NCBI GenBank assembly: GCA_036261885.1
Contig: DATAJY010000015.1
Span: 274,877-338,876 of the forward strand
Length of the DNA: 64,000 nucleotides
Direction: 5' to 3'
Source of the DNA: Thermoanaerobaculia bacterium
GTDB lineage: Bacteria > Acidobacteriota > Thermoanaerobaculia > Gp7-AA8
The translations under genes were made by a program, and so were the position numbers. This document shows, one piece after another, positions 2,916 through 60,503 of the stretch. The first letter of the stretch is position 1. Each line of letters opens with the position of its first letter. Under the pieces are notes generated by a model. It had not been told where the DNA came from and made no database searches. It was given only the letters and a program-made list of their open reading frames with translations.

Positions 2916-2919
2916 CGCG

Positions 2920-13621: not shown

Positions 13622-13679
13622 CGATTTGGACTCCGGATTTGGGGTTGACCGCCTGGACCTCTGGTCCGGCATGGTAGGG

Positions 13680-39667: not shown

Positions 39668-39950
39668 CGCGCGCGCTGGCGCCGCCCGTCAGTGATGAGG
39701 GACCAGTCGTTGCTCGACCAGTGATGAGCGATGAGTGATGAGGTAAGACACGCATCGCGAGTGCTGACCCCTCGCTGAAATGACGTCATTTCGCACAGCG
39801 TGACGCTTGCAACACCTGTCGAACCTCATCGCACATCACTCATCGCTGGCCCCACGAACACGCGCAGTTCTGACGACACGCCTGACGCGCCACGCAACCC
39901 CGCTATCATCCACCGGTCAGATTCGGAAACCCGGAGGATCGATCGTGCTG

Positions 39951-45900: not shown

Positions 45901-45914
45901 CGCACAAGGAGTGA
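39951..45914 (+). CDS. Giant (1988 aa) secreted protein: N-terminal right-handed beta-helix, at least 14 tandem Calx-beta domains, C-terminal beta-rich domain
   Basis: ORF 39807..45914. Start at MRRLALLLALCASPLLHA (signal peptide). Beta-helix repeats (NVISGNSDMGIEI, NILSGNGGSGYE...). Repeated Calx-beta signature ...DY..ASGTLTFAPGETTKTI.V.I.GD...E..ETF...LS.. at least 14 times. Confidence 0.9.
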   Translation: MRRLALLLALCASPLLHAATFTVNNAGDAGDATPGNGVCATAGAVCTLRAALQEANALAGTDTINLSIGSGAQTIQPASPLPVSSNVTIDGTTQPGSGAGPFILLDGQNATTIGFDVTTGGLTVTIQGFAIGRFTTAGIKSYQSSNSMTIKRCHIGVGLDGMTAMANGDGILVSVLNTGGGSLFIGDAAGGGNVISGNSDMGIEIIDSSSAGAKIGTLTIQGNKIGVGADGMTAVPNVSGGFRVNTQIGTTTFGGSVAGRNILSGNGGSGYETQFFLQTDLLTFSYNYVGVGQDGVTAVPNNGIGANLVARQYVVEENVIAGNGGVGLLLETGSVASNVRANRIGVAADGSAVANGGHGIQLNSLTNLIVGGPGTDANLIANNGGDGIALTNSVHAELAENTILANGGLGIDINNDGVTANDALDADTGPNNAQNYPLLTTAVRAGGITFVNGSLGSAASTTYKLRFFASTTPDATGFGEGETYLGTMNVTTNASGNASFTFQCPAALGTYITATATNIGGSDTSEFSNAILVSGPPQIRMAAASTTTAETGSVALTIERINGATGPASVDWATIPGSAGTSDYASASGSVTFANGETTKTINIAIAPDTLDENAESFGVELSNVSSGTELGSPFSTTIHITDDDLPPSVSIGDAGLAEGNAPLAFNVALSAASGKAITVDFVTSNGTATAGSDYAAAAGTLTFAPGETTKSISVQLFGDANIELDETFQLTLSNETNVTLGDSMATGTITNDDGLPSLAIDDVAVVEGDAATFTVTLSGPSASTVTVGWSTSDGSAISGVDYGAGGGTLTFAPGELAKTIVVTTNDDAIVESGETFFLDLAGPSNATLADAQGGGAIADDDGTPSLSINDPAVVEGTAATFTVTLAPQSALPVSVTIATSDLTADSSDYSSATTTLTFAAGETSKTISIATTNDVIAEPLESFAATLSSPSGATIADANGTATIIDDDGQPRVTIGNMTQGEGNSGLSVVQVPVDLSHSSASTITVVYTIADGTASSALGDYAAGGGTLTFTPGMTSQTISVFIGGDTLIEPDETLAITLGSAVNATIIDDEGIVTIANDDGGAQLSIGNAGEAEGTGGANTLDFAVTLNAPSATPVTVSWTTQNDSALAPSDYTAASGTLTFAPGETTKTIAIAVNTDSAFESDESFFVQLLAATDATIADADAAGVLVNDDPAPAVPSISIGNASVAEGNAGTTPLTFTVTLSTPTISTVLVDYGTANLSATAGLDYVAASGTLTFAPGVTAQTIAVPVIGDTLVETNETFTIALSSPTNGTLGTSSAAGTILEDDVAPAVPSISIANASVAEGNAGSTPLTFTVSLDVATVSTVTVQYATANVSATGGVDYAAASGTLTFAPGVTSQTINVPVIGDTLVETNETFTIALSSPANGTLGTSSAAGTILEDDVAPVIPSISIANASVAEGNAGSTPLTFTVSLDVATVSTVTVQYATANVSATAGVDYAATSGTLTFAPGVTSQTVAVPVIGDTSVESDETFTIALSSPANALLGGAIATGTIVNDDSLPSLAALSIADVSRNEGDAGATVDSFVVTLDAASSVPVSVSYATSAGSASASTDFVSASGTLAFTPGMTVQTIAVAVHGDTNRESDETFFVTLSAPSNATLADASATGTIRNDDDREPLIPTVTSSSLTIAENGGQAFLTLTLSSRPSGASLRWLTRGGTAAAGRDFVDASGTLVFDGLTATIPLTIVDDAQHEEPESFVVELFDAKNLTLDDTSAAVTIEDDDAPLAIILVAGSLQGDANARFGTAVQMLNTGDARAEGTLIFRGADSSDSVFDITRSYALEPHELRSWNDFPAENGVLGLSTIDVLPKAGSVPRMNIRIYDDGGAGTTGFTLPVVTPADALREGDRAVLIAPGDPIAARFNIGIRTLALGASLTITVRDRHGAVLHTRTRDYAPNFFSQNPAAAFAGRAGDYIEIEITRGSAILYGAAVDNITNDPSVEVLTHKE

Positions 45915-46019: not shown

Positions 46020-46463
46020 ATGGCGTCTTCGATGGGCAATCTCTTCCATTCGTCGCGGCTGCGCTGGATCGCGGAGCGCGCGACCACCGCGGTGTTGGTG
46101 CTCGGTACGCTGGCGCTGCTCGTCTGGCCGCGCTCGGTCGAGCGCATCACCGGCGTGCGCGAATCGTCGCCGCTCGCCTCGCCGGACGATCTGCCGGCGC
46201 TTTCGAAAGACGACGCCACTCCATTTTTCCAGTCGCGCAATCAGGTGGAGATCCGTGTGGCGGAAGCGACGACGCTGCGGCAGTTCCTCGATCGCAATCG
46301 ACTGAACAAGCCGTACCAGCGTCAACAGATCACCGCCCAGCTCGGCAACACGAGTCCCGATGCGCCGATCGCGGCCGGCACCGTGTTCCGCTTGTCGCTC
46401 ACGCCGGTGGCGGTCGACGTGCCGGGCGCACGTCCGGCCACCGCCGCCGAGGAACAGCCGTGA
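46020..46463 (+). CDS. Small membrane-anchored protein (147 aa), first gene of the GTPase/SEDS/PBP operon
   Basis: TM helix AVLVLGTLALLVW. Its stop overlaps the next start (TGATG at 46461-46465). Confidence 0.55.
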   Translation: MASSMGNLFHSSRLRWIAERATTAVLVLGTLALLVWPRSVERITGVRESSPLASPDDLPALSKDDATPFFQSRNQVEIRVAEATTLRQFLDRNRLNKPYQRQQITAQLGNTSPDAPIAAGTVFRLSLTPVAVDVPGARPATAAEEQP

Positions 46464-47509
46464 TGCGGTTCCTCTGCAAGGACTGCTGGCTTTCGCACAG
46501 CGAAGAGACGCTGCTGGCGCGCTGCAAACGCTGCGAGGCGAACACGCGCATCCAGCGTTTCGAGCCGCTCAGTGCGAAAGCCGGTCGCGGCGTGGCGCGC
46601 GGGCCGCTGGTCTGCAGGATTCATCCGACCGAGCCGCTCGACATCTTCTGCGGCGATTGCGAGCGCGCGGTGCCGCCGCGCACGATCATCGGCGATCGCA
46701 GCATCGTGGCCATCCTCGGCGATACGGCTTCGGGAAAAACGTCGTATCTCTGGATCCTCAGCGAACAACTTCGCCGCGCGCACGACGGCATCTTCATTCG
46801 CCAGGCCCTCGGCGATTCGGACGAGCAGCTTGCGAAAGCGGCGCGCGCGATCTTCGAGCGCGGTCGCATGTCGGCGACCGAGCCGACCGACGCGGACGTT
46901 CGCAATTACGCGTGGGAGCTCGCTCTCGGCGAGCGCGCCACGACCGTGATCGCCTTTCACGACGCCGCGGGCGAGGTGTGGAACGAGCTCTCCGGACTCT
47001 CGCGCACCACCTACGATCGCTTCTATCGCTATCTCGATCTGGTCGGCAGCCTGATCTTCGCCATCGATGGCGCGCACGTCGCCGCGGCGCTCGATGCCGA
47101 GGCGCGTCGTGGTGTCACGCCGCCGCTCTCGCGGGAAGCGCAGGTACACGAGCTGGCCATCGTCGATGCCGTGGCACGGCGGTTTCGCGCGCGCGGCGAG
47201 CGCATTCCGGTCGCCGCGGTGCTGACCAAGGGCGACGTGCTGTGGGACCGCGACGACTATCAATGCTTTCGCCCCGACAGCGATGCGGACGGCGAGACGA
47301 TCGGCCGTGCGGTGCGCGAGTTGATGAACAGATCGGGACGCGTGGCGCTCGTGCGTGCGCTCGAAGAAACGTTCGCGCCGGTGACCTGGTTCGCGATCTC
47401 CGCGTTCGGTCATTCGGTGAGCGAGCCGCTGCGGATCGAAGACGTGCGGCCGTCGCGTGTCGCCGATCCGCTGCTGGCCCTGCTCGGCAATCTCGTCACG
47501 CGGACCTAG
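46463..47509 (+). CDS. Zinc-ribbon small GTPase (paralog 1)
   Basis: 348 aa. N-terminal CxxC...CxxC (CKDCWLS...CKRCEAN) plus a second Cys cluster (FCGDCERA). G1 ILGDTASGKTS. G3 VIAFHDAAGE. G4 LTKGD. Confidence 0.8.
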   Translation: MRFLCKDCWLSHSEETLLARCKRCEANTRIQRFEPLSAKAGRGVARGPLVCRIHPTEPLDIFCGDCERAVPPRTIIGDRSIVAILGDTASGKTSYLWILSEQLRRAHDGIFIRQALGDSDEQLAKAARAIFERGRMSATEPTDADVRNYAWELALGERATTVIAFHDAAGEVWNELSGLSRTTYDRFYRYLDLVGSLIFAIDGAHVAAALDAEARRGVTPPLSREAQVHELAIVDAVARRFRARGERIPVAAVLTKGDVLWDRDDYQCFRPDSDADGETIGRAVRELMNRSGRVALVRALEETFAPVTWFAISAFGHSVSEPLRIEDVRPSRVADPLLALLGNLVTRT

Positions 47510-47511
47510 CG

Positions 47512-49212
47512 ATGGCCGACGCCGAGATCCTGCATCGCCTCTACACGAACGCCGCCGAGGAAGGGGCTTTCGATGGCGCGCGCGGGCGGGTGGTGGAGGT
47601 GGAGGAGCGTGATGCATCGCGCGTCGTTCCGCCCGATGTATTGGCCGCGCTCGACGATCTGTTGCGCAAGACCTCGCCGTCGTCGACGCAGACCGGCTGG
47701 GCGGTGCGGCGTTTCGCGAAAGGAAATCAGTCGTACGCGTGCGTCATCACGTCGTATCCCGATCTCGTCGATGCCGCGGACGGTCGCGCCGGCATGCTCA
47801 ATCACGCCCGGCTCATCGTCGTCGATGCACCGTCGTTCGATGTCTCGGCCCTGATCGAAGTGGCGGATGATTTTCCGATCGCCGACGTCTGCGCCGTTCC
47901 TTCGACGCGACGGTTGCGCGCGTATTTGAATGAAATCGCCAATGAATCGGGAGTGCTCGTGCGTCCGGTCTCGCTGAGCGAGCTGCAGCAGGAGCCGCGT
48001 GACCTGCTCGCCGACGTGCTCCTCGGCTGTCTGGCCGCGCTTGGACGTCGCGAGCATGTGCCGATGTCGATCGCGGACGCGCGTGCCATCGCGGTGGCCC
48101 GCGCGTGGGCCGCGCTGCCGCTCGCCACGCAGCGCACGAGCTCGTGGGCCGTCGGCGTGAAGGAGAGCTGTCCCGTCGACGTGATTTTCTCGACCTCGCA
48201 CGGCCAGGCGCCGGTGCATACGGGCTCGAAGGCGCTCGTCGATTGCGTGAAGCAGTACGTGCACCTCTTGCACGCCGCCCCCGAAACGGTGAACGCGATG
48301 CTCACCAACGCGTCGCTCTCCGACAAGACCGCGTTCGCGGCCGCGGTGCAGCGCGCCGCGATCGCTCCCGAAGTGTCGTCGATGGCAGGAAGGGAAGAGA
48401 TGACGAAAAAGGAACGGGCCACGAAGGCGGAGACGCGCGAGCCGCGCACCGAATGGCAACCGCTCGATGCCGACGTGCGCGCGGAGCTGAATCGCCAGTT
48501 CAAGGCGATGGAGGAGGTGCTGCGCCGCACGATCGACGAGCGGCTGGCGGCGTTCGAGGCAAAGCAGCGCGCGCAGGCGCCGTCGCGCAACGAACGGGCG
48601 ACGCTGGCGGGCTCGCTGCTGCCGGTCTGGATCACCGCCGGCATCTTCGTGCTCGCGGCGCTGGCGTGGCTCGGCTACCGTACGTTCGGTCCGCGAAATG
48701 AGCCCGCGCAGCGGCCGTCGTCGTACACGGAGCGCGAGCGTTACGAGGTGAGCGAGCCGGAGCCGAGCACCACGAACGAAGCGCCGCCGTTGAATCCCGT
48801 GCAGTCCGCGATCGCGCGGGCCGAGTCGACGCCGAGTCTCTGGCCCGATGAATTCAAGGCCCTGCTCGAGAACGATCGGGACTTCGTCGCCGGCGCCGTC
48901 AGCGCCGTCGCCGCTCGCGATGAAGTGCCGCGCGATGCGAAAGCCGCGCTCGCGAACTTCGCCACGCGCATCGCCCGCGGCGAGGATCTGCAGGCGGCCG
49001 GCCGCGAGAAATTGCGCGCGCTGCTGCTCGACTGTCTGGCCTCGGACGTCGACGGTGCAAAGGTGAAGATCGACGGCAAGCTCAATGACGTCGCGCCGTA
49101 TCTCGACGCGTTGAAGAAGCGCTATCGCACGAGCAGCACCAGCGATGACGCGACGCAGATGTCGCTGCAGAGCGAGCTCCTCCTGCGCTGGTTGTCGGAG
49201 CGCGAGCGATGA
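47512..49212 (+). CDS. Bitopic protein (566 aa): N-terminal possible roadblock/LC7-like domain, central TM, Ala/Glu/Arg-rich helical C-terminal region
   Basis: ATG at 47512, 3 nt after the upstream stop. TM LLPVWITAGIFVLAALAWLGY. The N-terminal ~120 aa have an alternating beta/alpha pattern (GRVVEV...ACVITSY...ARLIVVDAP). The roadblock assignment is tentative. Confidence 0.65.
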   Translation: MADAEILHRLYTNAAEEGAFDGARGRVVEVEERDASRVVPPDVLAALDDLLRKTSPSSTQTGWAVRRFAKGNQSYACVITSYPDLVDAADGRAGMLNHARLIVVDAPSFDVSALIEVADDFPIADVCAVPSTRRLRAYLNEIANESGVLVRPVSLSELQQEPRDLLADVLLGCLAALGRREHVPMSIADARAIAVARAWAALPLATQRTSSWAVGVKESCPVDVIFSTSHGQAPVHTGSKALVDCVKQYVHLLHAAPETVNAMLTNASLSDKTAFAAAVQRAAIAPEVSSMAGREEMTKKERATKAETREPRTEWQPLDADVRAELNRQFKAMEEVLRRTIDERLAAFEAKQRAQAPSRNERATLAGSLLPVWITAGIFVLAALAWLGYRTFGPRNEPAQRPSSYTERERYEVSEPEPSTTNEAPPLNPVQSAIARAESTPSLWPDEFKALLENDRDFVAGAVSAVAARDEVPRDAKAALANFATRIARGEDLQAAGREKLRALLLDCLASDVDGAKVKIDGKLNDVAPYLDALKKRYRTSSTSDDATQMSLQSELLLRWLSERER

Positions 49213-51938
49213 CGTTGTACCGGATCGAGCACGCGCTGGTGATGGACACCGACGACGTGCCGGGCCGCGGCGGCTACGCCGTGACCGGCATCTCGCCTCG
49301 CGTCTCGCCGGCCGAGCGCTCGTTCATCGCCGGCAACTTCGGCATCAGCGATTACCTGCACGATCCGAAAACCGAGAACCGCATTTTCTATGCGGTGTTC
49401 CGCATTCCCGGCGGCCGTCGCGCGTTCGTGCGCCGCTTCGCGCGCGGTACGGAGCTGCGCCGCAACAACACGCAGCGCCGCCTCGTCGTGCATACGCTGC
49501 TGCTCGATGACGACGTCTGGCAGGAACTGCACGCGTTGCCGTGGCTGCTGCTCAACGCGAGCGTACGACTCGAAGGCGCAACGTCGTGGGATCGTCTGCG
49601 TGCCGACGTTCCGTGGACCGATGACGGCTCGACGCTGCCGGCGCTCGAATGGGACAGCAGCGACGGAGCGGCCGCGAATGCCTGGAAGCGTCTCACCGAT
49701 CGCCTCGGCCTCATCGAGCATGGCGAGCCGCGCGATCTCATCGCGCGCATCCTCACCGCGATGTCGGCGCGCGCCCGCGTCGCGCTGCCGCAGGATGCCG
49801 GCTGGGAGTGGGCCACGATGCTGGCGTGGTCGATGTTGCCGCGCCACGACCGCGATGACCTCGGCTGGACGCAGCACGATTCGATGAATCTCACCGGCAT
49901 CGCGTTCGCGCTCGCCAACGTGCCGGGCGGAGACTTTCACGCATCGCAGGTGCAGCCGGCGAATTTCGCGCACGAGCTCGTGCAGATGAATGTCGAGTCC
50001 GAACGCTCGTGGCTCGATCTGCAGGGCCGCACGTCGCGGCACCCGTTGAGCGTGCGCCACGCCGGCGATCTCGAAAAGTGGGGGAAGTGGCGCAACGCGC
50101 TCCTCGATCTGCACACGCACATCCGCGGCTCGGAAGATGAAGTGGTGCGCTACATGCGCAAGCTCGCGCTGACCGTGAAGGCGAATCCGCGCGCGACGTG
50201 GATCGACGCCGAGGAAGTGCTGCGGCTGGTGTGGTCGAACGTGGCTCAGGACATTCGCGGCGGCGACGCCGTGGCGGTGACGCGGTGGGGACAGCGGCTG
50301 CGCGAAAGCGGGCTGGCCGACGTCGTCTTCGGCGCCGTGCCCGCGAAACACTGGCTCAACGCGGCGGCGAACGACATCGGCAGCGATGCCCTCGTCTGGT
50401 TCTTTCTCAGCGGCGGCGGCGAAGACGAGTCGGCGCGCGGCGCGCGTGCGGCCATCGCCGAATGGCTCGTCGAGACGCGCCTGCACGGCGTCACACCTGA
50501 GCGCGCCACGATGCTGGCGCAGCTGTTGTCGAACGATTACGCGCGGCCGCTCGTGCCGCTGCTCGAACAGTTGCTGGCCACACCCGAAGGGCTGGCCGCG
50601 CTCATCGAGTCCCTCGGCCGTCGCGAGCACGGCGGCCTGGAACTGCTGCATGCCGCGGCGCCGATCGTCGTTGCACGCGCGCATCCGAACGCGCGGGAGT
50701 TTCTGCGCGATCTCTTCGTGCCCCGCTTCGAGCGCACGCGCATCGACGCGAAGCTGGCCCGCGCCATCGCCCTGCTCGTTCGCGACGATGCCGCCACGCT
50801 GCTGCAGTTTCTCGCGCGCGTGCCGACCGACGTCGCCGGTCCGGTGGCGATGTCGCTCGCGCAGGCGGGGCAGCCGGCCAGCGTCTGGCTCGACGTGCTG
50901 TTGCGCATGGCGAAGTCGATCGACGAAGAGAACGACGCCGGCGGCGCGCGCGACTTCGCCGAGATGATGCGCGCGCTCACCGCACGCGAGCCGCTGCTCG
51001 ACGGCGCGATGTCGCGATTCATCGACTTCGTCGCGACCGAACGCCCGCGCGCCCGCGAGTCGATGCGGTCCATCGTCGCGTTGCTGCGCCCCGTCTGGCC
51101 GCAGGGCGGCAGCAAATTCGGGGCCGCGTTGATCGCGCTTCTGCAGCGGGCGCCGAATGCCATCGCGTGGGAAGAGCTCGTCGTCGCGTACGCGAACGAA
51201 CAACGCGCGAAACGGCCCGACGACGTGTCGGAGCTCGCCTCGGTCTGGTGGTGTCTCGTCGAGCCGGATCTGGCCACGCGGAGCGGCGCGCTGCTCGACG
51301 TCATCCGCGGCGACGGCCTTCGCCGTCTCACGGCGCACTGGTCGAAGAAGGTCGGCACGCTGTCGCCGTCTCCCGTGGCCGACAAGCTGCTGGCGCTGGT
51401 GCAGCATCACTCCGATTCGTTCGAGGTCGAGCGCGATCTCGCCTCGCGCGACGTCCGGCACGGCGTGGCGAACGTGCAGACGCTCAATCGTCTCGAGGCC
51501 GCGCTGGCGCGTGTCCATGCAGCGAAAGGATCGCGCCTGTTCGTCGACGACGCACGCGTGTTTCTCGGAGACGGACCGGCCACGCGCGCGGTGCGGCTGC
51601 TGAAAGTGCTTTCGTCCGACGACGTCCATCCGACTGTCCGTCTGGCGTTCCTGCAGCATCTCCTTCCCGAGGTACTGGCGTCACTCCGGAAGGGAGACTT
51701 CGAGGAAGTGAAGCAGCAGACGCGCGAGGAAGATCTGCTCGGACTCGGGGTGGTCGTGCGGCTCGCGTACGCCGTCGGGGCGCGCGCGAGCGGCAGTACG
51801 AGCGCCGGCTTCGAGGCGGTGTGGGTGCGCAACAAACGCAGCGATGCGCTCGATGCATTGCAGGCCGGACGCGCCACGCGCGGTCCGCTGCGCTGGCTCA
51901 CGAGCAGGATGAGGAGCGATGGCCCGGTACAGATGTGA
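49209..51938 (+). CDS. Large (909 aa) predominantly alpha-helical (ARM/HEAT-like) hypothetical protein
   Basis: ATGA overlap with the upstream stop. Leu/Ala/Arg-rich helical repeat composition across ~800 aa. No catalytic motif recognised. Confidence 0.65.
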   Translation: MTLYRIEHALVMDTDDVPGRGGYAVTGISPRVSPAERSFIAGNFGISDYLHDPKTENRIFYAVFRIPGGRRAFVRRFARGTELRRNNTQRRLVVHTLLLDDDVWQELHALPWLLLNASVRLEGATSWDRLRADVPWTDDGSTLPALEWDSSDGAAANAWKRLTDRLGLIEHGEPRDLIARILTAMSARARVALPQDAGWEWATMLAWSMLPRHDRDDLGWTQHDSMNLTGIAFALANVPGGDFHASQVQPANFAHELVQMNVESERSWLDLQGRTSRHPLSVRHAGDLEKWGKWRNALLDLHTHIRGSEDEVVRYMRKLALTVKANPRATWIDAEEVLRLVWSNVAQDIRGGDAVAVTRWGQRLRESGLADVVFGAVPAKHWLNAAANDIGSDALVWFFLSGGGEDESARGARAAIAEWLVETRLHGVTPERATMLAQLLSNDYARPLVPLLEQLLATPEGLAALIESLGRREHGGLELLHAAAPIVVARAHPNAREFLRDLFVPRFERTRIDAKLARAIALLVRDDAATLLQFLARVPTDVAGPVAMSLAQAGQPASVWLDVLLRMAKSIDEENDAGGARDFAEMMRALTAREPLLDGAMSRFIDFVATERPRARESMRSIVALLRPVWPQGGSKFGAALIALLQRAPNAIAWEELVVAYANEQRAKRPDDVSELASVWWCLVEPDLATRSGALLDVIRGDGLRRLTAHWSKKVGTLSPSPVADKLLALVQHHSDSFEVERDLASRDVRHGVANVQTLNRLEAALARVHAAKGSRLFVDDARVFLGDGPATRAVRLLKVLSSDDVHPTVRLAFLQHLLPEVLASLRKGDFEEVKQQTREEDLLGLGVVVRLAYAVGARASGSTSAGFEAVWVRNKRSDALDALQAGRATRGPLRWLTSRMRSDGPVQM

Positions 51939-53016
51939 GAACTGCAACGAGCTCCGCGACGCGGCGATCTGCCCGAAGTGCGGCGCCGACACGCATCGTC
52001 TCGACGAGCAGGCGAGGGACGATCGCAGCACGCCGTCGCTCGACGATCTCGCGTCGCGCGTGAGTCAGCGCGCCGCGGCCACGGAAGCGCCGAAGCCGGC
52101 GCCCGCGCCGCTGCCGGCCGCGCCGCCGCCGGCTCCCGCGGCGCAGCCGCATTCGCAGGCCGTGCCGCCGAGCACGATCATCGGTCTCGACGAATTCCAC
52201 GCGCTGCTCGATCGCGGCACCGAGGCGGTGATCATCTGCGGCGCCGCGCAGACGGGCAAATCGGAGATCGCGGCCGGATACATCCGCGCGAACACGGTCT
52301 ATCGCGGCAAGGCGCAGAACCTCACGTTGCGCGCGGTACTGCGCACCGATTACGCGCTCGGCGGCACCGCGCCCGACGAAGTCTGGTACCAGATCATCGA
52401 CGACAAGAAAGCGTTTCTCGATCCCTCGGGCGAGTTCTTTCGCCGTCTCTCGCCCGATGAGCGAATCCGCTACGGGCTGCCCGATGTGACCGAGGAGAAC
52501 TTTCAGTTCGTGCAGCGCGCGGTGAGCAGACTGGCCGGCATCGTCGTCGTCGTCGATCTCACCTCCGCGATCGATCCGCGCGCCTCGGCGCCGTGGCGCC
52601 GGCAGGAAGACGATCTGAAGTTCGTCCTCTCCGCGCTGCGCTGGCTGCGCTGGGATCACACGGCCCGCCCTGATGCGATCGGGCTGTCGACGAACATCGC
52701 GCAACGGGTGTCGATGTTTCCTCGTATCGACAAGCGGGTGCTCGTGCTTTTCTCGAAAGCGGATCAACTGCCGAAATACACGAATCAGACGCCGCTCGAC
52801 TTCGCGCGGCAGCGGCTGCCGGTGCTCCACGCCGCGCTGATGACGCACGCGAAGCGCTTTCGCTACGACTTCTGCAACACGATGATCAAGACCGAGAGCG
52901 GTGATCAGGCCGTCGATCCTTGCGGCGTGTTGCTGCCGGTGAACTGGCTGCTCGATGACTCGTTCGACTGGCTGCCGCTGCAACTGCCGACGAGCCTCAT
53001 CGGAGGCGGACAGTGA
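51919..53016 (+). CDS. Zinc-ribbon small GTPase (paralog 2)
   Basis: 365 aa. MARYRCENCNELRDAAICPKCGAD zinc ribbon. G1 IICGAAQTGKSE. G3 FLDPSGE. G4 FSKAD. 20-nt overlap with the upstream gene. Confidence 0.8.
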   Translation: MARYRCENCNELRDAAICPKCGADTHRLDEQARDDRSTPSLDDLASRVSQRAAATEAPKPAPAPLPAAPPPAPAAQPHSQAVPPSTIIGLDEFHALLDRGTEAVIICGAAQTGKSEIAAGYIRANTVYRGKAQNLTLRAVLRTDYALGGTAPDEVWYQIIDDKKAFLDPSGEFFRRLSPDERIRYGLPDVTEENFQFVQRAVSRLAGIVVVVDLTSAIDPRASAPWRRQEDDLKFVLSALRWLRWDHTARPDAIGLSTNIAQRVSMFPRIDKRVLVLFSKADQLPKYTNQTPLDFARQRLPVLHAALMTHAKRFRYDFCNTMIKTESGDQAVDPCGVLLPVNWLLDDSFDWLPLQLPTSLIGGGQ

Positions 53017-54821
53017 AATCGAAGGGGAAGCGGCAACTGCAATCTCCCGATCGCGTGTGGTTCCGCGCCGCGCTCGCGGGCACGGTCCTTCTCGCCGCGT
53101 CGCTGGCGTGGTGGTTCTACGCGCATCAGGTCTCGAAGCGGAGCATCGAAGGGGCGCTCACCGCCGGCGCGCGCGAAGAGCTGGCCGCGTTGCCGGTGCC
53201 GGCGATCCGGACCGCGGAAGTGGAACGCTCGTGGGTCGCGGAAGGATTTTCGAGCGAGTCGCTCGTCGCGCCGGTCGGGCCGATGCCGTGTGCCGGTGTC
53301 GTCGACGCCGTGGCCCCGGCCGATCAGAACGTTCTGCGCGAAGCGCTGGCCGCCGCCGCGCAGCCGGATGCCGACGTGCGCATCGAACAGCTGGCGTCGA
53401 TCCACGACGGCGCGCCGCGCAACCTTCTGGTTGCGCAAATGCTCGGCACCGCGCTGGTCGAGGAAGGGCGCTATCCGGAGGGGGAGAGCGTGCTCACCCG
53501 TGGGCTCGAGCAATCGGGTGAGGACGAGACCATCATCCGCGCCGCGCGCGTCAACACGCAGCTCGATCTCGACGATCTCTCCGTCTCGACCGTCATTCAC
53601 CTGCACCACGCCCTCGGCGTCGCGCGGCTCTCGCAGTCGTCCGCCGAGCCGCCGTGGGTCTCGCTCAAGAACGTCATCGGCTCGGTGAAGCCGCTCGCGA
53701 AACGGCGGCTGCTCGGCACGACGCGCGGCCAGCCGGCGTGGAGCCGTCTGCTCATCGCCGCGCCCGGCTGCGCACCGAATGCGTCCCCGCGCGCGCTGTC
53801 GACGTACGACCTCTTCAACAACCTCGTGGTCGGCTACATGCGCGGCACGTTCACCGGCACGAATCGCGATCGCGACCGCGAGTTCTCACGGCCGCGCAAG
53901 AACTATCCGGGCGCGATCCACAAACTCCTGCTCGTCCAGGTCGGACGTGCGAAGGCGAACGACTGGGCCAATGAGGCGCAGCTCTGGGCACTCTCCAACG
54001 TCGAGCAGATCATCGACTGGCGCATGCCCGACGACGCGCGGCTCGCGTTCAATTCCGTGCAGGTCATCGACTGGTGGACCGCGCCGGAACGCTGTCCCGC
54101 CGATGCCTGCACGCCGCAGCTGCTCGGCGAGATCAATAAGGTTCGCGATCAACTCGTCGAGCAGGTGTTCCGGCGCCGCAACGTCGATGAAGAACAGCGC
54201 GGCGCATTCGCTCGCGGTGCCGTGCGACTGCTCGCCACCTCTTCGCTCGATCGCTCGCGCATCGCCGATGCCGCGACCGCGATTCGCGAGTGGCTGCCGC
54301 CCGCGGAACGCCGCACGCTCGACGATCTGCTGAACGCCGATGCCGCGCGCCGCGCCATGCCGCGCCATCTCTTCGCGCCGCAAGCGGCGGACGCGCCGAA
54401 CGCGGATGACGCGCCGCCGCCGGCCGAGCCGCCGTACGCGAAGCTCGGCGCGCGCGCCGACAAATGGCGCGCCGCGGCATTGACGGATGTCGCCGCCATG
54501 GCCGCGAAATGGGCCTCGCAGCGTCCGCCCGCGGAACAGCGCGCCGCGCTCGTGGCCATCCGCCAGCTGCTCGGCGGCGCGGAGGCGCCGCCGGAACTGC
54601 TGCAGCTCGAACGGCAACGCTCGTTCTTCGACCGGCTGCGGTTGCGCATCGTCGCGTCGAAGGCGTACTGGGCTTTCCTGGCGATCGTTCTCGGCCTCTC
54701 GATCTGGTTCGTATTGCTTTGGATTCTCGTGCATGTGCGCGAGGCGCGGCTGCTGCGCGTGTCGCTCTACAACGTCGAACACGAGTACCTCGCGGGGATC
54801 GAGCGCGACCCGCGCCGCTGA
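53013..54821 (+). CDS. Membrane-associated helical protein (602 aa) with N- and C-terminal TM segments
   Basis: GTG start overlapping the upstream stop. TM AALAGTVLLAASLAWWFY. C-terminal TM AYWAFLAIVLGLSIWFVLLWILVHV. The central region is helical and repeat-like. Confidence 0.65.
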   Translation: MKSKGKRQLQSPDRVWFRAALAGTVLLAASLAWWFYAHQVSKRSIEGALTAGAREELAALPVPAIRTAEVERSWVAEGFSSESLVAPVGPMPCAGVVDAVAPADQNVLREALAAAAQPDADVRIEQLASIHDGAPRNLLVAQMLGTALVEEGRYPEGESVLTRGLEQSGEDETIIRAARVNTQLDLDDLSVSTVIHLHHALGVARLSQSSAEPPWVSLKNVIGSVKPLAKRRLLGTTRGQPAWSRLLIAAPGCAPNASPRALSTYDLFNNLVVGYMRGTFTGTNRDRDREFSRPRKNYPGAIHKLLLVQVGRAKANDWANEAQLWALSNVEQIIDWRMPDDARLAFNSVQVIDWWTAPERCPADACTPQLLGEINKVRDQLVEQVFRRRNVDEEQRGAFARGAVRLLATSSLDRSRIADAATAIREWLPPAERRTLDDLLNADAARRAMPRHLFAPQAADAPNADDAPPPAEPPYAKLGARADKWRAAALTDVAAMAAKWASQRPPAEQRAALVAIRQLLGGAEAPPELLQLERQRSFFDRLRLRIVASKAYWAFLAIVLGLSIWFVLLWILVHVREARLLRVSLYNVEHEYLAGIERDPRR

Positions 54822-54828
54822 CGGAGAA

Positions 54829-57588
54829 ATGATGCTGAACTGGACCAGCGTACTGCTGCTCGTGGGACCGGTGGTCCTGCTGCTGATGACGCTTCGCCAC
54901 AACGACGCGCGCCGCCCGGCCGCGTTCCCCGGCCTGCTCTTCGTCTACGTGCTCTGCGCCGCGACGCCGCTCGTCTTCGCGTTGCTGTGGCGGCTCGATG
55001 CCACGCGCGCGTCGATCGAGCTGCATGGCATCGCCTTTCGTACGAGCGGCGCGAACGCGGTGCAGAAGGAGATTCGCGAGCGGCGTGCGAACAGCGGCCG
55101 CATCGTCATCGGCGATCCGGTCTCGCGCCGGACGCGCGCGCAGCAGCGCACCTTCGGCACACTGCACTTCACACCGGCGAAGGCGAGTGCCAGCGGCGCG
55201 CTGCGCATCGATCTCCCGCCGCGCGAACGCCGCTCCGGCCTGATCTCGACGAACGCGACCGGAATCCTCGGCGCGGAGTTGCTGCAGGACGGCGACTCGA
55301 TCTGCATCGGCGGCAGCTGCTGGACGTACGACCAGGGCGATCGCTCGTTCACGCACGCGAAAAACACGATCGCGATTCCGGCCCGTCAGGCCGAACTGCC
55401 GGGACTGGACTGGAGCTTCACGCTTCCGTTCGCGAAACCGATCTCCGCCGGACTGCGCACCTGGTCGGTCGATTTTCTGGCGCGGCAGAGCGGCGCGATC
55501 GCACCGGAGCGCCGGCTGCGCTCGTTCATCGCCCATTCGAATCCTGGTGCCGCGCTGCGTCTCGTCGCACTCGACGAAGACGTGAACCTCGTGCGCAACG
55601 GGGCCCGCGTGCAGACGCCGGTCCGCTTCGACGTCGAGGACGGCGCACGCGTCGCCTTCTACTCCTTGCCGGGCGAGTCGGCGCAGTTCGCCGCCCCCGG
55701 CATCGCCGAGCGTCGCAGCATGATCTATCGCGCCGGCGAGCGCAGCTTCGTGCTCGATCTCGACACGCCCGAGATTCACACGCTGACGATCGACGAACTG
55801 CAGGCGCTCGAGCTGGCGCAGGAGAAAGGGGCAACGCGCAAGAAAATCGCGCTGGCGATGGGCGATGCGGAGCTCGTCGATCGCAGTCTCTATTTCAACG
55901 GTCTCAGCGAATCGGTGGCTGTTGAATCGAATGCGCTGCTCGAGCTCTCGCGTTTCTTCCCGCGCGATTTCGCATCCGCCTTCCGCATCATTTCGCCGCG
56001 CGGACCGGTCGACGCGCAACTCGGCCGCGTGCAGTGGATCGGCACGTCCGATCTCGCGGCCGTGCGGCTCGATGTGCTCCGTCCGCCGCTGCTCCTGCTC
56101 GCGCTCGGAATCGTGCTGCTGCTTTTCAAAGCGGGCGCGGCGTCGGCGATCGGATTGACGGCGACGCAGGCGCTGATGGCCGGCGCAATCGAGTTGCTCT
56201 GCGGCATTCGCCTGCTGATGGGCTGGCGGGTCTGGGCCATGCCGCCGCACAAACTCGAGGCGGCCGAGCTGGCCATGGTGGCGTGGATGGCGCTGCCGTG
56301 GATCTTTCTTGCGGCGATGATCCCGCTGCGCTCGTTGCGCGACTGGCGTGACGCGCGCGTCTCCGCCGCACCGGCGCTGGCGGGGCTCGTCTTCTCCGCG
56401 GTCTTCTGCGCGCGCAGCGTCGCCGGCCCGACGAAATGGGTGTGGGTGCTCTGTCATCTGCTGCCGCTGCTGGCCGTGCTGCTGCGCACCGACGAAGCGC
56501 GCGGGCGATTCGCGAAGCTCGCCGCGCGCGTGAGAACGTGGACCGCGCGCTCGAAACGTTTCGATCCGGAGTTGCTGCCGATCGTCATCGCGGCCGTGCT
56601 CTTCACGCTCGTCCGTCTGATCCTCCTCGCGTTCGGCTGGAAGGAGTCGGCGAGCCTCGGCGTGCGCGTCTCGCTCAGCGTGCTGCACCTCCCCGCGGCC
56701 GTGATCCTGCAGGGCATTTTTCTCTGGCGCACGTGGCAGCGCGTCCTGAAGAACGGCCGATTGCTGAAGGCCGATCTCATCACCGCCGCGGTGATTCTCG
56801 TTTTCGTGTGGGGCTTGCCGGCGGCGATCACCAGCGACGTCGGTCTGGCACTGCTCAACGCGCCGCTGTTCGTGTTGATGCTGCTCGCGATCAGCCGTCA
56901 CGCCGACGAGCGCGCCGGCCGCTGGATTCCACGCCTGCTCGTGGCGATGGTCGTGCTGCTGCTGGCCGGCGGCCCGCTCGCGCGACTGATCCTGCCGCTG
57001 TTCGCCAGCGATGAACTGCTGCTCTCCGCGGCGTCCGATTCCAACTTCGCGCGCGTGCTGCACTTCGCCGCGCCCGAACGCCTGCAGGAGCTGGCGACGA
57101 AACGCGGCGAGTCGCTGGCCATCACCTCCGCGATTCTGCAGAGCTACATCAGCTCCGGCTTCTTCGGCCGCGGCTACGGCCGCTCGGAGGTCAGTCCGCA
57201 TCTCGGCGATACCGCGTTGCGCGACTTCGCCCCCGCGGTCTTCATCGCCGCGGAGTGGGGATTCGCCGGCACCGTCGCCGCGCTGCTCATCTATCTGCTG
57301 TTCGGCATCATCGCCAGCGAGTGGCTGCCGTGGAGCGCCTCGCGTGTCGACGGGCATCCCGGCCCGGCCATCGCGTTCGTCGCCGCGGCCACGATCGCGG
57401 TCTCGAGCATCTACATGATCCTCGCGAACCACGAGCTGCTGCTGCTCACCGGCAAGAATGCGTACCTCTTCGGACTCGATTCGGCCGGCGACGTGATCGA
57501 GATGATCGTGCTGATTCTGCTCATCGCCTGCGGCTCGAGCGTCGTGCGCGAGGAGTCGCAGGCACTCACGTACGGAGACTACGCATGA
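54829..57588 (+). CDS. SEDS (RodA/FtsW)-like polytopic membrane protein with ~450-aa N-terminal extension (possible FHA-like segment)
   Basis: 919 aa. ATG 54829 (MMLNWTSVLLLVGPVVLLLMTL). More than 10 TM helices in the C-terminal half. SEDS signature RDFAPAVFIAAEWGFAGTVAALLIYLLFGII (compare RodA TDFIFAVLAEELGLVG...). N-terminal extension has ...LISTNATGILGAELLQDGDSICIGGSCWTY (FHA-like pattern). Confidence 0.75.
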   Translation: MMLNWTSVLLLVGPVVLLLMTLRHNDARRPAAFPGLLFVYVLCAATPLVFALLWRLDATRASIELHGIAFRTSGANAVQKEIRERRANSGRIVIGDPVSRRTRAQQRTFGTLHFTPAKASASGALRIDLPPRERRSGLISTNATGILGAELLQDGDSICIGGSCWTYDQGDRSFTHAKNTIAIPARQAELPGLDWSFTLPFAKPISAGLRTWSVDFLARQSGAIAPERRLRSFIAHSNPGAALRLVALDEDVNLVRNGARVQTPVRFDVEDGARVAFYSLPGESAQFAAPGIAERRSMIYRAGERSFVLDLDTPEIHTLTIDELQALELAQEKGATRKKIALAMGDAELVDRSLYFNGLSESVAVESNALLELSRFFPRDFASAFRIISPRGPVDAQLGRVQWIGTSDLAAVRLDVLRPPLLLLALGIVLLLFKAGAASAIGLTATQALMAGAIELLCGIRLLMGWRVWAMPPHKLEAAELAMVAWMALPWIFLAAMIPLRSLRDWRDARVSAAPALAGLVFSAVFCARSVAGPTKWVWVLCHLLPLLAVLLRTDEARGRFAKLAARVRTWTARSKRFDPELLPIVIAAVLFTLVRLILLAFGWKESASLGVRVSLSVLHLPAAVILQGIFLWRTWQRVLKNGRLLKADLITAAVILVFVWGLPAAITSDVGLALLNAPLFVLMLLAISRHADERAGRWIPRLLVAMVVLLLAGGPLARLILPLFASDELLLSAASDSNFARVLHFAAPERLQELATKRGESLAITSAILQSYISSGFFGRGYGRSEVSPHLGDTALRDFAPAVFIAAEWGFAGTVAALLIYLLFGIIASEWLPWSASRVDGHPGPAIAFVAAATIAVSSIYMILANHELLLLTGKNAYLFGLDSAGDVIEMIVLILLIACGSSVVREESQALTYGDYA

Positions 57589-60503
57589 CGCCGCGCGGAA
57601 AAATGCTGCTGACCATCTTCGGCATCGCCGTCGTCGCCCTGCTGTGGTGGCGCCAGCGTAACGAGCCGTTGTCGTACTACTCGTCGCGCAGCTACGTGCA
57701 GCGGACGAACGATCTCATTCGCCGCGGCGCGCTCCGTTTCGATTGCGCGGCCGATGAGATCCGGATGACCGATCGTGCGAACGATGCGGAACGGGCGTGG
57801 TTCGCGGCCAGCTATCTGCAGAACGACGTCGAGCTGTTCAATCGCAATCGCGAGTTGTTCGGACACTTCTTCGTCGTCTCCGACTGCGAGCTGCGCGAGA
57901 TCAATCCATTCCTGCGCACCATCCGGCTGCCGTTCGCGAAGTCGACCGAATGGCTCGGCAACATCGAGTACACCGGCCCCGGCTCCGATGCGGCACTGAT
58001 CTCGGCGAACGGCCGCACGCTGGCCATCGAACGGAATGCGGCGGCGGATGGGCTGGCCGGGATCCGTGAGGATGTGCGCACCCGCGTCGGCGATTCCGAG
58101 AGTCTCAGCGGCAGCGTGTTGCACATCGATTTCGCCGGACGCGGGCAGACGCCGGGCGTCGAAGTGCACAACGTCGAAGGGACGGCCATCGTCGAACAAC
58201 GCGTGAAGCGCGGCCAGGCCGCGGAGGTCCGTCTCCTCGGCAACGCCATGAACGAAGGACGGATCACGAAGCTCGAAACCGGAGACTGGCTGCATCTCTC
58301 CGCCGAGTCGCCGGTGCCGCGTTCCGAAACGTTTCTCTACAGCGCCGAACGCCGTTACGAACGCCTGAGCACCGTCCGCACGCGCAACGCGCGGCGCGAG
58401 CGCGTCTTCACCGAAGACGATCCGCTGCTGCAGTGGGTCGGCGGCGATGAAGGGGAGGAGATGCTCACGTTCGGCGAGGCGCTCGCGCGCAGCGTCACGA
58501 ACGCACTGCAGCAGATCGATCCGATGCGCGCCGACGAATTGCGCGAAGGCTTCGACGTGCAGCTCAGCATCGATCGTCCGCTGCAGTCGAAGCTCGACGC
58601 GACGCTGGCCAGTCACGCGAACCGGCTCGTGAACGACGTTGCCGCGGGCGATCCGTTCGCCGCCTCGGTGACGATCATGAACGGCAGGACCGGCGAAGTG
58701 CTCGCGGCCGCGAGCTTTCCCGGCGAAGCCGATCTCGAGGCGATGACCGGCGTTTCGGAGGACGAGCGCCGGCGGCTGCTCGTCAATCACAACTTCAAAC
58801 GGCATCCGATCGGCTCGGCCGGCAAGCCCTTCTTTTACGCCGCGGCCGCGACGCGTCATCCGTTCCTGCTCGACCTCACGGTCGCGCCGCACCTGCCGGT
58901 CGAGCGTCCCGATGGCGGCGAAGGGGAACGCGAGGTGCTGCAGTTCTTCCTCGGCCGCGACTACAAGCTCTGGCCGCACGCCGATGCACCGATCGACATG
59001 CAGTCGGCCATCGAGCGCTCGTGCAACAAATTCACGGTGGAACTGGCGACGCTCGCGCTCGCCGCGCCGCGCGATCTGACGGAACGCACGCTCACGCGTC
59101 CACTCGCTCAGGTCTTCGCGCGACAGGCGAACGTGGTCTGGCCGAAGCCGGGCGTTGTCTTCGATGGTCCGCGCATCAACGGGCAGCCGGTCGATTTTCC
59201 GATCGACCTCGGCGTCTACATGAAGGACGACGGACAGCCGGTCGGCCCGCGCGAAGAGACCACCGCGGTGGTCACGCCGGGCACGCTCGATCGCATCGAC
59301 GAGGCGCCGTTCATCGAAGCATTCGGCGATCTCACCGGCGTGCGGACGTACGCCGGTCTCGACGCGCCGAACGTGCCGAAGGAAGGGAACGAAGGGCTCA
59401 CGCGCACGGCTCTTCACTACGACCTCCGCCCCTGGTCGAAGCTGCTGACCATGCTGATGCAGGGAGAGGATGAAGAGCACGCGTGGAAAGTGCGCGCCGC
59501 GCTGCAATCCGTTTCGCCGGAACGGGTGAACCTCTCGCTCAATCAGGTCACCGAGTTCCGCACGGAGCTCGTCTCGCTGCTCCTCGGCGGCTCGACGTCG
59601 CAATGGACGAACGTGCAGCTCGCCGAAGCGTTGTCGCGACTCGTCACCGGCCGGCAGATCGAAGCGTCGATGGTCCACACGGTGCGTCCGCGCAAAGGAG
59701 CGGTCGAAGAGCCGATCGCCGTGGCGCCGCCGCTGTCGCCACAGACGATCTCTCCGGAAGCGCGGACCACCGTCTTGCGCGGCATGAGACGCGTGATCCT
59801 CGGCGCGCACGGCACGGCCTTGCCGATGGCCGCGCGCGTGCACGAGCTCGAACGGCAATTTCCCGGATACAACGTGGCGGTCTTTTCGAAGACCGGCTCG
59901 CCGACCGTGCAGCGTCCGGAGAGCAAGCCGACCGGCGAGATCCTGCGGCAGCTCGTGCGCCGCGGCTATCTCTTCTATGACGGGAAGCAGCTCGTGGTGT
60001 CGACCGATCGGCAGAAGGCGGCCGTGCCATACGCCGCGCGCGGCACGAAGGGTCGGGCCGCGTTTCTCGACGCGCTCACGCGCGCCTCGCGCATCGCCGC
60101 ACGTCAGCTGGGCCGCAGCGCCGGTCCGCGCACCATTCCGCGCATCGCCTCGTACGCCGATCGCTTCTCGCGCTATCGCAGCCGGCTGGTGTTCGTTTCG
60201 CCGGCCGCGGTGCGGCTCGATGAGGCAGCCTCGTCGCCGATCCACGTCGTGGCCGGCTCGCTGGTGCTCAATCGCGATCACTCGATTTTCGACAAGACGC
60301 AGCAGGCCGATTCGAGTGCCGCGTACGTGATGTCGATCGTGAAGTGGCGCGGCAGCGGCGAGATCCCGACGCCCGAGGAGCTGGATCAGCCCGATGCGCG
60401 CGTCGTGACGGCGGTTTTCTATCTCGACATCGGACCAGGGAGCGCGGTGGCGGTGGAGCTCGCACGGACGATCGTGCCGGAGCTCGTGCCGCTTCTGCAA
60501 TGA
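57585..60503 (+). CDS. Class-B penicillin-binding-protein-like transpeptidase (972 aa, membrane-anchored, with long insertions)
   Basis: ATGA overlap with the SEDS-like gene. TM MLLTIFGIAVVALLWW. SxxK IGSAGKPFF. SxN ERSCNKF. KTG VAVFSKTGSPT. VTIMNGRTGEVLAAASFP is typical of the bPBP pedestal/TP junction. Confidence 0.8.
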   Translation: MTPRGKMLLTIFGIAVVALLWWRQRNEPLSYYSSRSYVQRTNDLIRRGALRFDCAADEIRMTDRANDAERAWFAASYLQNDVELFNRNRELFGHFFVVSDCELREINPFLRTIRLPFAKSTEWLGNIEYTGPGSDAALISANGRTLAIERNAAADGLAGIREDVRTRVGDSESLSGSVLHIDFAGRGQTPGVEVHNVEGTAIVEQRVKRGQAAEVRLLGNAMNEGRITKLETGDWLHLSAESPVPRSETFLYSAERRYERLSTVRTRNARRERVFTEDDPLLQWVGGDEGEEMLTFGEALARSVTNALQQIDPMRADELREGFDVQLSIDRPLQSKLDATLASHANRLVNDVAAGDPFAASVTIMNGRTGEVLAAASFPGEADLEAMTGVSEDERRRLLVNHNFKRHPIGSAGKPFFYAAAATRHPFLLDLTVAPHLPVERPDGGEGEREVLQFFLGRDYKLWPHADAPIDMQSAIERSCNKFTVELATLALAAPRDLTERTLTRPLAQVFARQANVVWPKPGVVFDGPRINGQPVDFPIDLGVYMKDDGQPVGPREETTAVVTPGTLDRIDEAPFIEAFGDLTGVRTYAGLDAPNVPKEGNEGLTRTALHYDLRPWSKLLTMLMQGEDEEHAWKVRAALQSVSPERVNLSLNQVTEFRTELVSLLLGGSTSQWTNVQLAEALSRLVTGRQIEASMVHTVRPRKGAVEEPIAVAPPLSPQTISPEARTTVLRGMRRVILGAHGTALPMAARVHELERQFPGYNVAVFSKTGSPTVQRPESKPTGEILRQLVRRGYLFYDGKQLVVSTDRQKAAVPYAARGTKGRAAFLDALTRASRIAARQLGRSAGPRTIPRIASYADRFSRYRSRLVFVSPAAVRLDEAASSPIHVVAGSLVLNRDHSIFDKTQQADSSAAYVMSIVKWRGSGEIPTPEELDQPDARVVTAVFYLDIGPGSAVAVELARTIVPELVPLLQ

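Follow-up and report, generated by a model that had tools for sequence, protein, structure and literature searches.

Results

An operon with two GTPases and a putative wall-synthase pair

We analysed a 64,000-nucleotide stretch of DNA from a Thermoanaerobaculia bacterium (contig DATAJY010000015.1; hereafter the window, ~67% G+C) and found on its + strand, at 46020-60503, an eight-gene cassette that encodes two zinc-ribbon GTPases related to the DO-GTPase family, two proteins resembling the GAP1 partners of such GTPases, and two large proteins that look like a very divergent peptidoglycan synthase pair of the SEDS and class B penicillin-binding protein (bPBP) type. The genes lie in the order S0-G1-P2-P3-G2-P5-P6-P7:

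46020..46463, + strand: S0 (147 amino acids, aa), small single-pass membrane protein, first gene of the cassette
46463..47509, + strand: G1 (348 aa), DO-GTPase with two N-terminal zinc modules
47512..49212, + strand: P2 (566 aa), GAP1-like protein with one transmembrane (TM) helix
49209..51938, + strand: P3 (909 aa), GAP1-like protein with an alpha-helical solenoid
51919..53016, + strand: G2 (365 aa), divergent DO-GTPase paralogue with one zinc ribbon
53013..54821, + strand: P5 (602 aa), TPR-containing protein with a hydrophobic segment at both ends
54829..57588, + strand: P6 (919 aa), polytopic protein with a SEDS (RodA/FtsW)-like core
57585..60503, + strand: P7 (972 aa), class-B-PBP-like transpeptidase

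Every junction between 46020 and 60503 is an overlap or a gap of at most 7 nucleotides (nt), the S0 stop codon overlapping the G1 start by 1 nt, and the eight genes form one translationally coupled operon. The overlap between the start of G2 and the end of P3 is 20 nt long (51919-51938), as against 1-4 nt at the other overlapping junctions, and is called likewise in a second locus, L001. An earlier sequence-only reading had flagged 46463-53016 for two GTPase genes within one operon. Both open reading frames (ORFs) are present on the + strand at the positions it gave, and their placement in one tightly packed gene series was correct, but the operon reaches past the flagged range on both sides, and the reading overlooked the best-conserved part of the operon, the SEDS-like and PBP-like genes further downstream. 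The gene that follows P7 (60500-61120) was considered as a ninth member and left out of the cassette because it is conserved in the closest relative only. Scans of the window for tRNAs and Rfam families found nothing.

G1 and G2 are relatives of the DO-GTPases

Both GTPases open with cysteine-rich zinc-binding motifs and continue into a nucleotide-binding domain, in which the following sequence motifs were located:

nt 46475-46534, + strand: G1 zinc ribbon, C5xxC8...C21xxC24
nt 46613-46660 (aa 51-66), + strand: G1 second zinc module, C51xxH54...C63xxC66 (B-box-like)
nt 46718-46741 (aa 86-93), + strand: G1 P-loop, GDTASGKT
nt 46946-46975 (aa 162-171), + strand: G1 Walker B/switch II, VIAFHDAAGE
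nt 47225-47236 (aa 255-258), + strand: G1 TKGD
aa 313-316, + strand: G1 G5-like motif, SAF(G)
nt 51934-51981, + strand: G2 zinc ribbon, C6xxC9...C18xxC21
nt 52240-52263 (aa 108-115), + strand: G2 P-loop, GAAQTGKS
nt 52411-52434 (aa 165-172), + strand: G2 Walker B, AFLDPSGE
nt 52753-52764 (aa 279-282), + strand: G2 SKAD

Across 32 G1 homologues, residues G86, G91, K92, T93, D167, G170, K256, D258, C51, H54, C63 and C66 are invariant and the Walker B glutamate, E171, is kept in at least 90% of the sequences; across 35 G2 homologues, G108, G113, K114, S115, T150, D168, G171, E172, K280 and D282 are invariant. Because these motifs are invariant or nearly so, we regard them as being under selection and not as chance matches, which bears out the zinc ribbon, P-loop, DxxG and [TS]KxD motifs that the sequence-only reading had reported in both proteins. 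That reading lacked the second, CxxH..CxxC zinc module of G1, which gives weak matches to the B-boxes of TRIM proteins (E 0.07-0.4). G2 contains a Pro/Ala-rich linker.

DO-GTPases were described computationally, together with GAP1 proteins, as the core of 'GTPase-centric' systems (Kaur, Burroughs, Iyer and Aravind, 2020, eLife 9:e52696, PMC7159879), for which Pfam provides the models PF19975, PF19993 and PF20012-PF20014. G1 passes the curated cut-off of DO-GTPase2 (47.3 bits against a cut-off of 27) and scores 26.7 bits against DO-GTPase1, and all 76 of its 76 close homologues carry PF19993 and/or PF19975; judged by these profile matches, G1 is a member of the DO-GTPase2 family. G2 has no Pfam match even at E<=10 and so does not reach a DO-GTPase cut-off, and DO-GTPase1 is touched by only 3 of the 35 members of its family, at E values of at least 0.046. 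The nearest solved relatives of the G2 profile are EngB, EngA and Rab11, all weak (E 3.5e-4 to 0.04). The predicted structure of G2 is a Ras-like TRAFAC fold whose top structure matches are exclusively TRAFAC GTPases, with the GTPase motifs G1-G4 in canonical order, a result that speaks against the non-GTPase P-loop fold for which the sequence-only reading had suggested looking. Both GTPases have the Walker B glutamate (DxxGE), a hallmark of DO-GTPases (PMC7159879).

BLASTP found no significant similarity between G1 and G2. Profile comparison of the two families with hhalign gave 59% for narrow alignments and, when distant cassette members were added, 96.6% (E 5e-10, 229 columns), with homology running from the P-loop to the C-terminal helix. 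By this profile evidence the two are ancient paralogues, and the word 'paralogous' in the sequence-only reading thus holds at the profile level but only in that ancient sense. Its further suggestion that zinc-ribbon-fused GTPases are rare does not hold. According to Kaur et al. (2020), 60% of DO-GTPases have one or two zinc ribbons at the N-terminus and 38% of their systems contain two paralogous GTPases, so that neither the zinc-ribbon fusion nor the doubling of the GTPase is a rarity; we conclude that G1 and G2 are ordinary members or relatives of the described family.

P2 and P3 resemble GAP1 proteins

In the systems of Kaur et al. (2020), GAP1, encoded beside the GTPase, is the defining second component. 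The N-terminal ~230 aa of P2 appear homologous, by profile-profile comparison, to the GAP1-N/M region: aligned with hhalign to distant GAP1-like proteins, the P2 family scored 87.7% (E 3.4e-6, 213 columns), a local hmmsearch of P2 matched many GAP1-like proteins in the same register, and the motif W-[AS]-x-L-P-x3-[QD]-R is common to P2 and the GAP1-like relatives of P3. Beyond this region P2 has one TM helix (aa 369-387) and then a C-terminal tail of ~180 aa on the far side of the membrane. P3 consists of an alpha/beta region (aa 1-240) followed by an alpha-helical solenoid of ~650 aa, as modelled with AlphaFold2 (pLDDT 88.7) and seen in solenoid-type fold matches.

A search of 1.84 billion representative proteins with a P3 profile of 30 sequences returned 93 relatives only. 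Among 40 distant P3 relatives surveyed with Pfam, the recurrent families were GAP1-M (PF20014; 13 sequences, best E 2.1e-5), GAP1-N2 (PF20013; 11 sequences, best 1e-4) and GAP1-N1 (PF20012; 7 sequences, best 1.7e-4), and no other family recurred. All of these matches lie below the Pfam cut-offs, which indicates remote homology and not formal membership; they fall where GAP1 domains would be expected, at aa ~10-120 and ~236-274, in those parts of the P3 N-terminus that are conserved. Comparison of the P2 family with the close P3 family by hhalign gave nothing, the link being seen only against distant GAP1-like relatives. Since the P2 N-terminus aligns to the distant relatives of P3 and has a motif in common with them, we take P2 and P3 to be, by transitive profile evidence, two very divergent GAP1-like paralogues. 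GAP1-C was not matched in Pfam scans of the cassette proteins or the P3 relatives, in a library whose own GAP1-C model was not confirmed. The sequence-only reading had proposed that a GTPase had been duplicated in tandem together with a GAP or effector partner; the pairing gains some support from the GAP1-like nature of both intervening proteins, but the GAP or effector role assigned to them does not.

In one Acidobacteriota metagenome-assembled genome (a 5.08-Mb contig), P2 and P3 are fused into a single protein of 1554 aa (L002, 5327-9991; same contig as L010), which argues that both act together. Locus L022 has a stand-alone ORF of ~320 aa (2350-3309, - strand), divergently upstream of its cassette, whose match is confined to the N-terminal GAP1-like part of P3 (profile positions 11-250, E 2e-32).

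P6 and P7 resemble a SEDS-bPBP pair

P6 begins with two TM helices, continues with a soluble insert of ~365 aa and ends, after aa 420, with ~10 TM helices. When its family profile was searched against all sequences in the PDB, the top four matches were RodA of T. thermophilus (E 0.007); the P6 segment GRGYG...LRDF...AEWG aligned to RodA 230-281 and placed D799 opposite RodA D255, a position that is Glu in the two most distant homologues. Pfam FTSW_RODA_SPOVE (PF01098) was matched by 2 of 13 P6 homologues (best E 5.6e-5). P7 has the three active-site motifs of a class B PBP:

nt 58815-58826, + strand: P7 SxxK, S411-K414
nt 59019-59027, + strand: P7 SxN, S479-N481
nt 59889-59897, + strand: P7 KTG(S), K769-G771

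These motifs occur in order and are invariant in 12 homologues, and P7 passes the Pfam Transpeptidase model (PF00905; 23.3 bits against a cut-off of 22.1), so that it has both the motifs and the transpeptidase profile that define class B PBPs. Against NCBIfam pbp2_mrdA it scores E 1.8e-12 and 46.6 bits, far below the equivalog cut-off of 455, and is therefore not a PBP2 orthologue. Matches of the P7 profile in the PDB are class B PBPs exclusively (E 8e-5 to 0.06) and include 6pl5_B, the PBP2 of the RodA-PBP2 complex. Because the matches are to RodA and class B PBPs and the motifs are intact, P6 and P7 look, in their sequences, like a very divergent SEDS-bPBP peptidoglycan synthase pair.

Distribution and conservation of the cassette

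The eight-gene order recurs in about 20 loci of Thermoanaerobaculia and other Acidobacteriota, with differing flanking genes; 18 loci were counted among the genomes of 185,579 species. Identity to the window proteins is highest for P7 (58-80%), followed by P6, is intermediate for G1, G2 and P5, and is lowest for P2 and P3 (27-35% in most loci), a ranking consistent with enzymes held under constraint and regulators that evolve fast.

The gammaproteobacterium Achromatium sp. WMS3 (38% G+C) has a related core, on a contig that ends before any downstream genes. In this giant sulfur bacterium (L025, 6375-7591) the counterpart of G1 comes as two proteins, a 123-aa zinc-finger protein with a weak zf-B_box match (E 0.15) and a 280-aa GTPase, and additional genes are interspersed in the core. 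Proteins of the Ion_trans_2 (potassium-channel) type are encoded just downstream of the cassette in L003 (19203-20528) and L004 (14418-17258), in L004 after the core, where P6 and P7 would be; the Ion_trans_2 protein may represent another kind of output module or be there by chance.

The two remaining cassette proteins, S0 and P5, are predicted to be membrane-associated. S0 has one hydrophobic segment (aa 17-35) and a conserved C-terminal domain of ~70 aa; its homologues occupy the equivalent position in 13 loci, and it has no Pfam, PDB-sequence or PADLOC match. A resemblance to LysM noticed by eye was dropped, as PDB sequence profiles lend it no support. P5 has a central region of ~500 aa with TPR repeats and invariant cysteines (C93 and C253) between its two hydrophobic ends, of which the C-terminal one comes from the TM map and the N-terminal one was judged by eye. 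TPR_19 is matched by 9 of 19 P5 homologues (best E 4.3e-7), and P5 is found in every locus that bears G2, including that of Achromatium. Scanned directly with Pfam, NCBIfam and PADLOC, the window's P2, P3, P5, P6 and S0 yielded no usable match.

Immediately 5' of the cassette lies a 2035-aa protein that combines 11 Calx-beta domains with a beta-helix region (39807-45914, + strand), which is not conserved as a cassette neighbour in other loci. Elsewhere in the window, on the - strand, are a 1713-aa ORF (15823-20964) that has a C-terminal AAA domain as well as DUF7902 and DUF3686 ('ATPase involved in DNA repair', E 6e-206), a giant ATPase unrelated to the GTPase cassette; a 1463-aa protein with DUF3857, a transglutaminase core and TPRs (9521-13912); and a 947-aa protein with Reg_prop/Y_Y_Y and a GGDEF diguanylate cyclase domain (2920-5763).

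Discussion

The identities of the components are well supported, and from them we infer a mechanism towards which we lean with modest confidence: the cassette would be a GTP switch that gates its own peptidoglycan synthase, a divergent DO-GTPase/GAP1 system joined to a SEDS-like/bPBP-like pair. G1 and G2 would bind GTP, with guanine specificity conferred by [ST]KxD, and together make up a switch, heterodimeric or in tandem, on the membrane's inner face, where P2, P5 and S0 would hold it. Each GTPase would be read or regulated by a cognate GAP1-like protein, of which P2 would be membrane-anchored and P3 cytoplasmic. The nucleotide state could then be relayed through the P2 anchor, P5 and the large soluble insert of P6, the P6-P7 synthase would thereby be switched on or positioned, and GTP hydrolysis would reset the system. 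We favour this GTP switch because the operon is tight and stable, because constrained enzymes are combined with fast-evolving regulators, and because GAP1-N2-type systems have links to the membrane and the cell wall, having been placed at the membrane and found with cell-wall-binding domains (PMC7159879). In Myxococcus spore germination, a MglA/MglB small-GTPase module is reported to be tied to the site at which peptidoglycan is rebuilt (bioRxiv 10.1101/818641), and that case may serve, by analogy, as a functional precedent for GTPase-linked wall synthesis.

Several observations weigh against a switch dedicated to wall synthesis. P6 of the window has no Pfam match and its SEDS assignment is marginal (profile E 0.007), and its insert, through which the signal would pass, could lie on either side of the membrane. 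P2 and P3 of the window likewise have no direct Pfam match, so that the GAP1 assignments draw on profile-profile scores and on Pfam matches that distant relatives give below the cut-off. Three loci (L004, L013 and L023) have the core G1-P2-P3-G2-P5 but neither P6 nor P7, which marks the synthase as a separable module and not an obligate partner. The literature that we searched contains no experiment on any DO-GTPase system, and the role proposed for the family, in biological conflict (Kaur et al., 2020), would give the enzymes a different part to play.

That proposal leads to the main rival explanation, which we rate as unlikely: an anti-phage or anti-invader system, in which the GTPase-GAP1 core sets a threshold after an invader is sensed and the SEDS-like and PBP-like proteins act as effectors that, for instance, wall off or remodel the infected cell's envelope, or act as decoys. 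The cassette is self-contained, its flanks differ between genomes, and its occurrence is as patchy as that of a conflict system might be (18 loci, with the related core in Achromatium), but it matches no PADLOC defence model beyond trivial P-loop ones, and Pfam scans of it bring up nothing recognisable as a toxin, nuclease, peptidase, TIR, SLATT or effector-associated domain. Fast evolution of the GAP1-like proteins, at 27-35% identity in loci where P7 retains 58-70%, is what an arms race would be expected to produce in sensors; the supposed effectors, however, are conserved more strongly than any other component, which is the reverse of the effector variability in Kaur et al. (2020). Similarly, the output module appears replaceable, being absent from the three loci named above, yet gene order and content are stable in most loci.

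We think it improbable that G1 and G2 are Ras/MglA/Arf/Rag-like GTPases, each with a GAP or effector of the roadblock or longin type, that arose by tandem duplication and form a polarity- or trafficking-type switch unrelated to the described bacterial systems. Such a switch would suit the presence of two GTPases with two related partner proteins, and the solved structures closest to the G2 model are indeed Rag, Arf, Rab, Sar1, SR-beta and MglA, but by sequence the GTPases belong with the DO-GTPase family and not with Ras, MglA, Arf or Rag: neither has a Pfam match of the Ras, Arf, Gtr1_RagA or MglA type, G1 falls in DO-GTPase2, contrary to the Ras/MglA-like label of the sequence-only reading, and both have Glu after DxxG in switch II. 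The N-domain of the P3 model has a longin-like order of elements (b-b-a-b-b-b-a), but the DENN match of the P3 model sits among many helical-repeat matches of equal score and no partner protein has an MglB/roadblock Pfam match; moreover, a system of this kind has already been described (Kaur et al., 2020). It is highly improbable that the P-loop proteins are ATPases of another class (ABC-like, kinase-like or AAA/STAND-like), for although the sole PDB sequence matches of the G1 profile are short P-loop stretches of ABC ATPases, AAA_16 gives weak Pfam matches and fold prediction covers G2 alone, the ABC matches span only ~30 residues round the P-loop, [ST]KxD is invariant in both GTPase families, the top matches of the G2 model are all TRAFAC GTPases, and G1, which scores above the DO-GTPase2 cut-off, shares homology with G2 all the way from the P-loop to the C-terminus.

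If P6 and P7 are the output of the GTP switch, assays of lipid II polymerisation, bocillin labelling and fluorescent D-amino-acid incorporation could give the DO-GTPase family its first measurable output. The activation of SEDS-bPBP pairs is an active question in cell-wall biology, and if a GTPase encoded in the operon of such a pair served as its input, that would establish a new principle of regulation. In the literature that we searched, DO-GTPase/GAP1 systems are described by Kaur et al. (2020) alone, one further paper mentioning a DO-GTPase near psp operons, and an architecture with two GAP1-like proteins and a SEDS-bPBP output appears undescribed there. The main text of Kaur et al. (2020) mentions no FtsW, penicillin-binding proteins or Acidobacteria; the accessible text of its supplement names no FtsW, RodA, PBP or Acidobacteria and, as it does not contain the term 'DO-GTPase' either, that absence proves little. 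Since the Pfam models overlook G2 and both GAP1-like proteins, about half of the system, Pfam-based censuses would undercount such systems. We tentatively raise the possibility, which we would not yet put at even chances, that the cassette represents a third architecture of DO-GTPase/GAP1 systems, with a heterodimeric zinc-ribbon switch and two GAP1-like readers, perhaps longin/DENN-like in their N-domains, in direct control of their own SEDS-bPBP synthase, and with a core that reaches beyond Acidobacteriota.

Comparison with known systems

The cassette resembles the described DO-GTPase/GAP1 systems in its TRAFAC GTPases with a Walker B glutamate and one or two zinc ribbons, in the presence of two paralogous GTPases per operon, in GAP1-like genes that adjoin the GTPases, and in its membrane-proximal components. 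One of its GAP1-like proteins has a C-terminal TM helix, as some GAP1 proteins carry a TM helix and tail (PMC7159879), and the two N-terminal zinc modules of G1 are a feature of GAP1-N2-type GTPases. It differs in that its G2, P2 and P3 are missed by the Pfam models and in that it has two GAP1-like proteins and not one. In the described systems an all-helical protein, GASH, goes with the GAP1-N1 type and a fast-evolving FNIII-repeat protein with the GAP1-N2 type (PMC7159879), whereas neither is detectable in the cassette: GASH and FNIII have no match in the cassette proteins or 19 P5 homologues, nor FNIII in 13 P6 homologues. The effector themes listed for the described systems (calcineurin-like phosphoesterase, TIR, SLATT, peptidases, tubulin, HSP70 and kinase/PP2C) are absent as well, and the linked genes are instead the SEDS-like/bPBP-like pair.

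That pair is comparable to RodA-PBP2, FtsW-FtsI and SpoVE-SpoVD in that neighbouring genes specify a polytopic SEDS-like protein and, beside it, a bitopic transpeptidase that bears SxxK, SxN and KTG, and in the PDB its sequence relatives are confined to RodA and class B PBPs, among them both chains of T. thermophilus RodA-PBP2. P6 and P7 far exceed canonical pairs in size (919 and 972 aa) and in divergence, P6 having two extra TM helices and the ~365-aa insert, and P7 a long unmatched N-terminal region and insertions. The known inputs of SEDS-bPBP pairs are of the MreB/RodZ or FtsA/FtsN type, whereas the regulators of P6 and P7 would be GTPases of the same operon. With MglA/MglB and Rag/Arf/SR-beta the cassette has in common a switch logic with dedicated non-enzymatic partners; it differs from them in that G1 and G2 do not belong to their sequence families, are fused to zinc ribbons and have long insertions between motifs G3 and G4, and in that the partners are GAP1-like, a longin or DENN fold being merely hinted at.

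A further parallel is the actinobacterial cell-wall growth cluster fhaA-fhaB-pstP-rodA-pbpA-pknA-pknB, in which signalling genes are found in one operon with a SEDS-bPBP pair and the switch is Ser/Thr phosphorylation, with kinases, a PP2C phosphatase and FHA readers. In both cases operon sharing implies that a cytoplasmic switch controls wall synthesis directly, but in the cassette described here that switch would be the binding and hydrolysis of GTP by DO-GTPases, with GAP1-like proteins as its readers.

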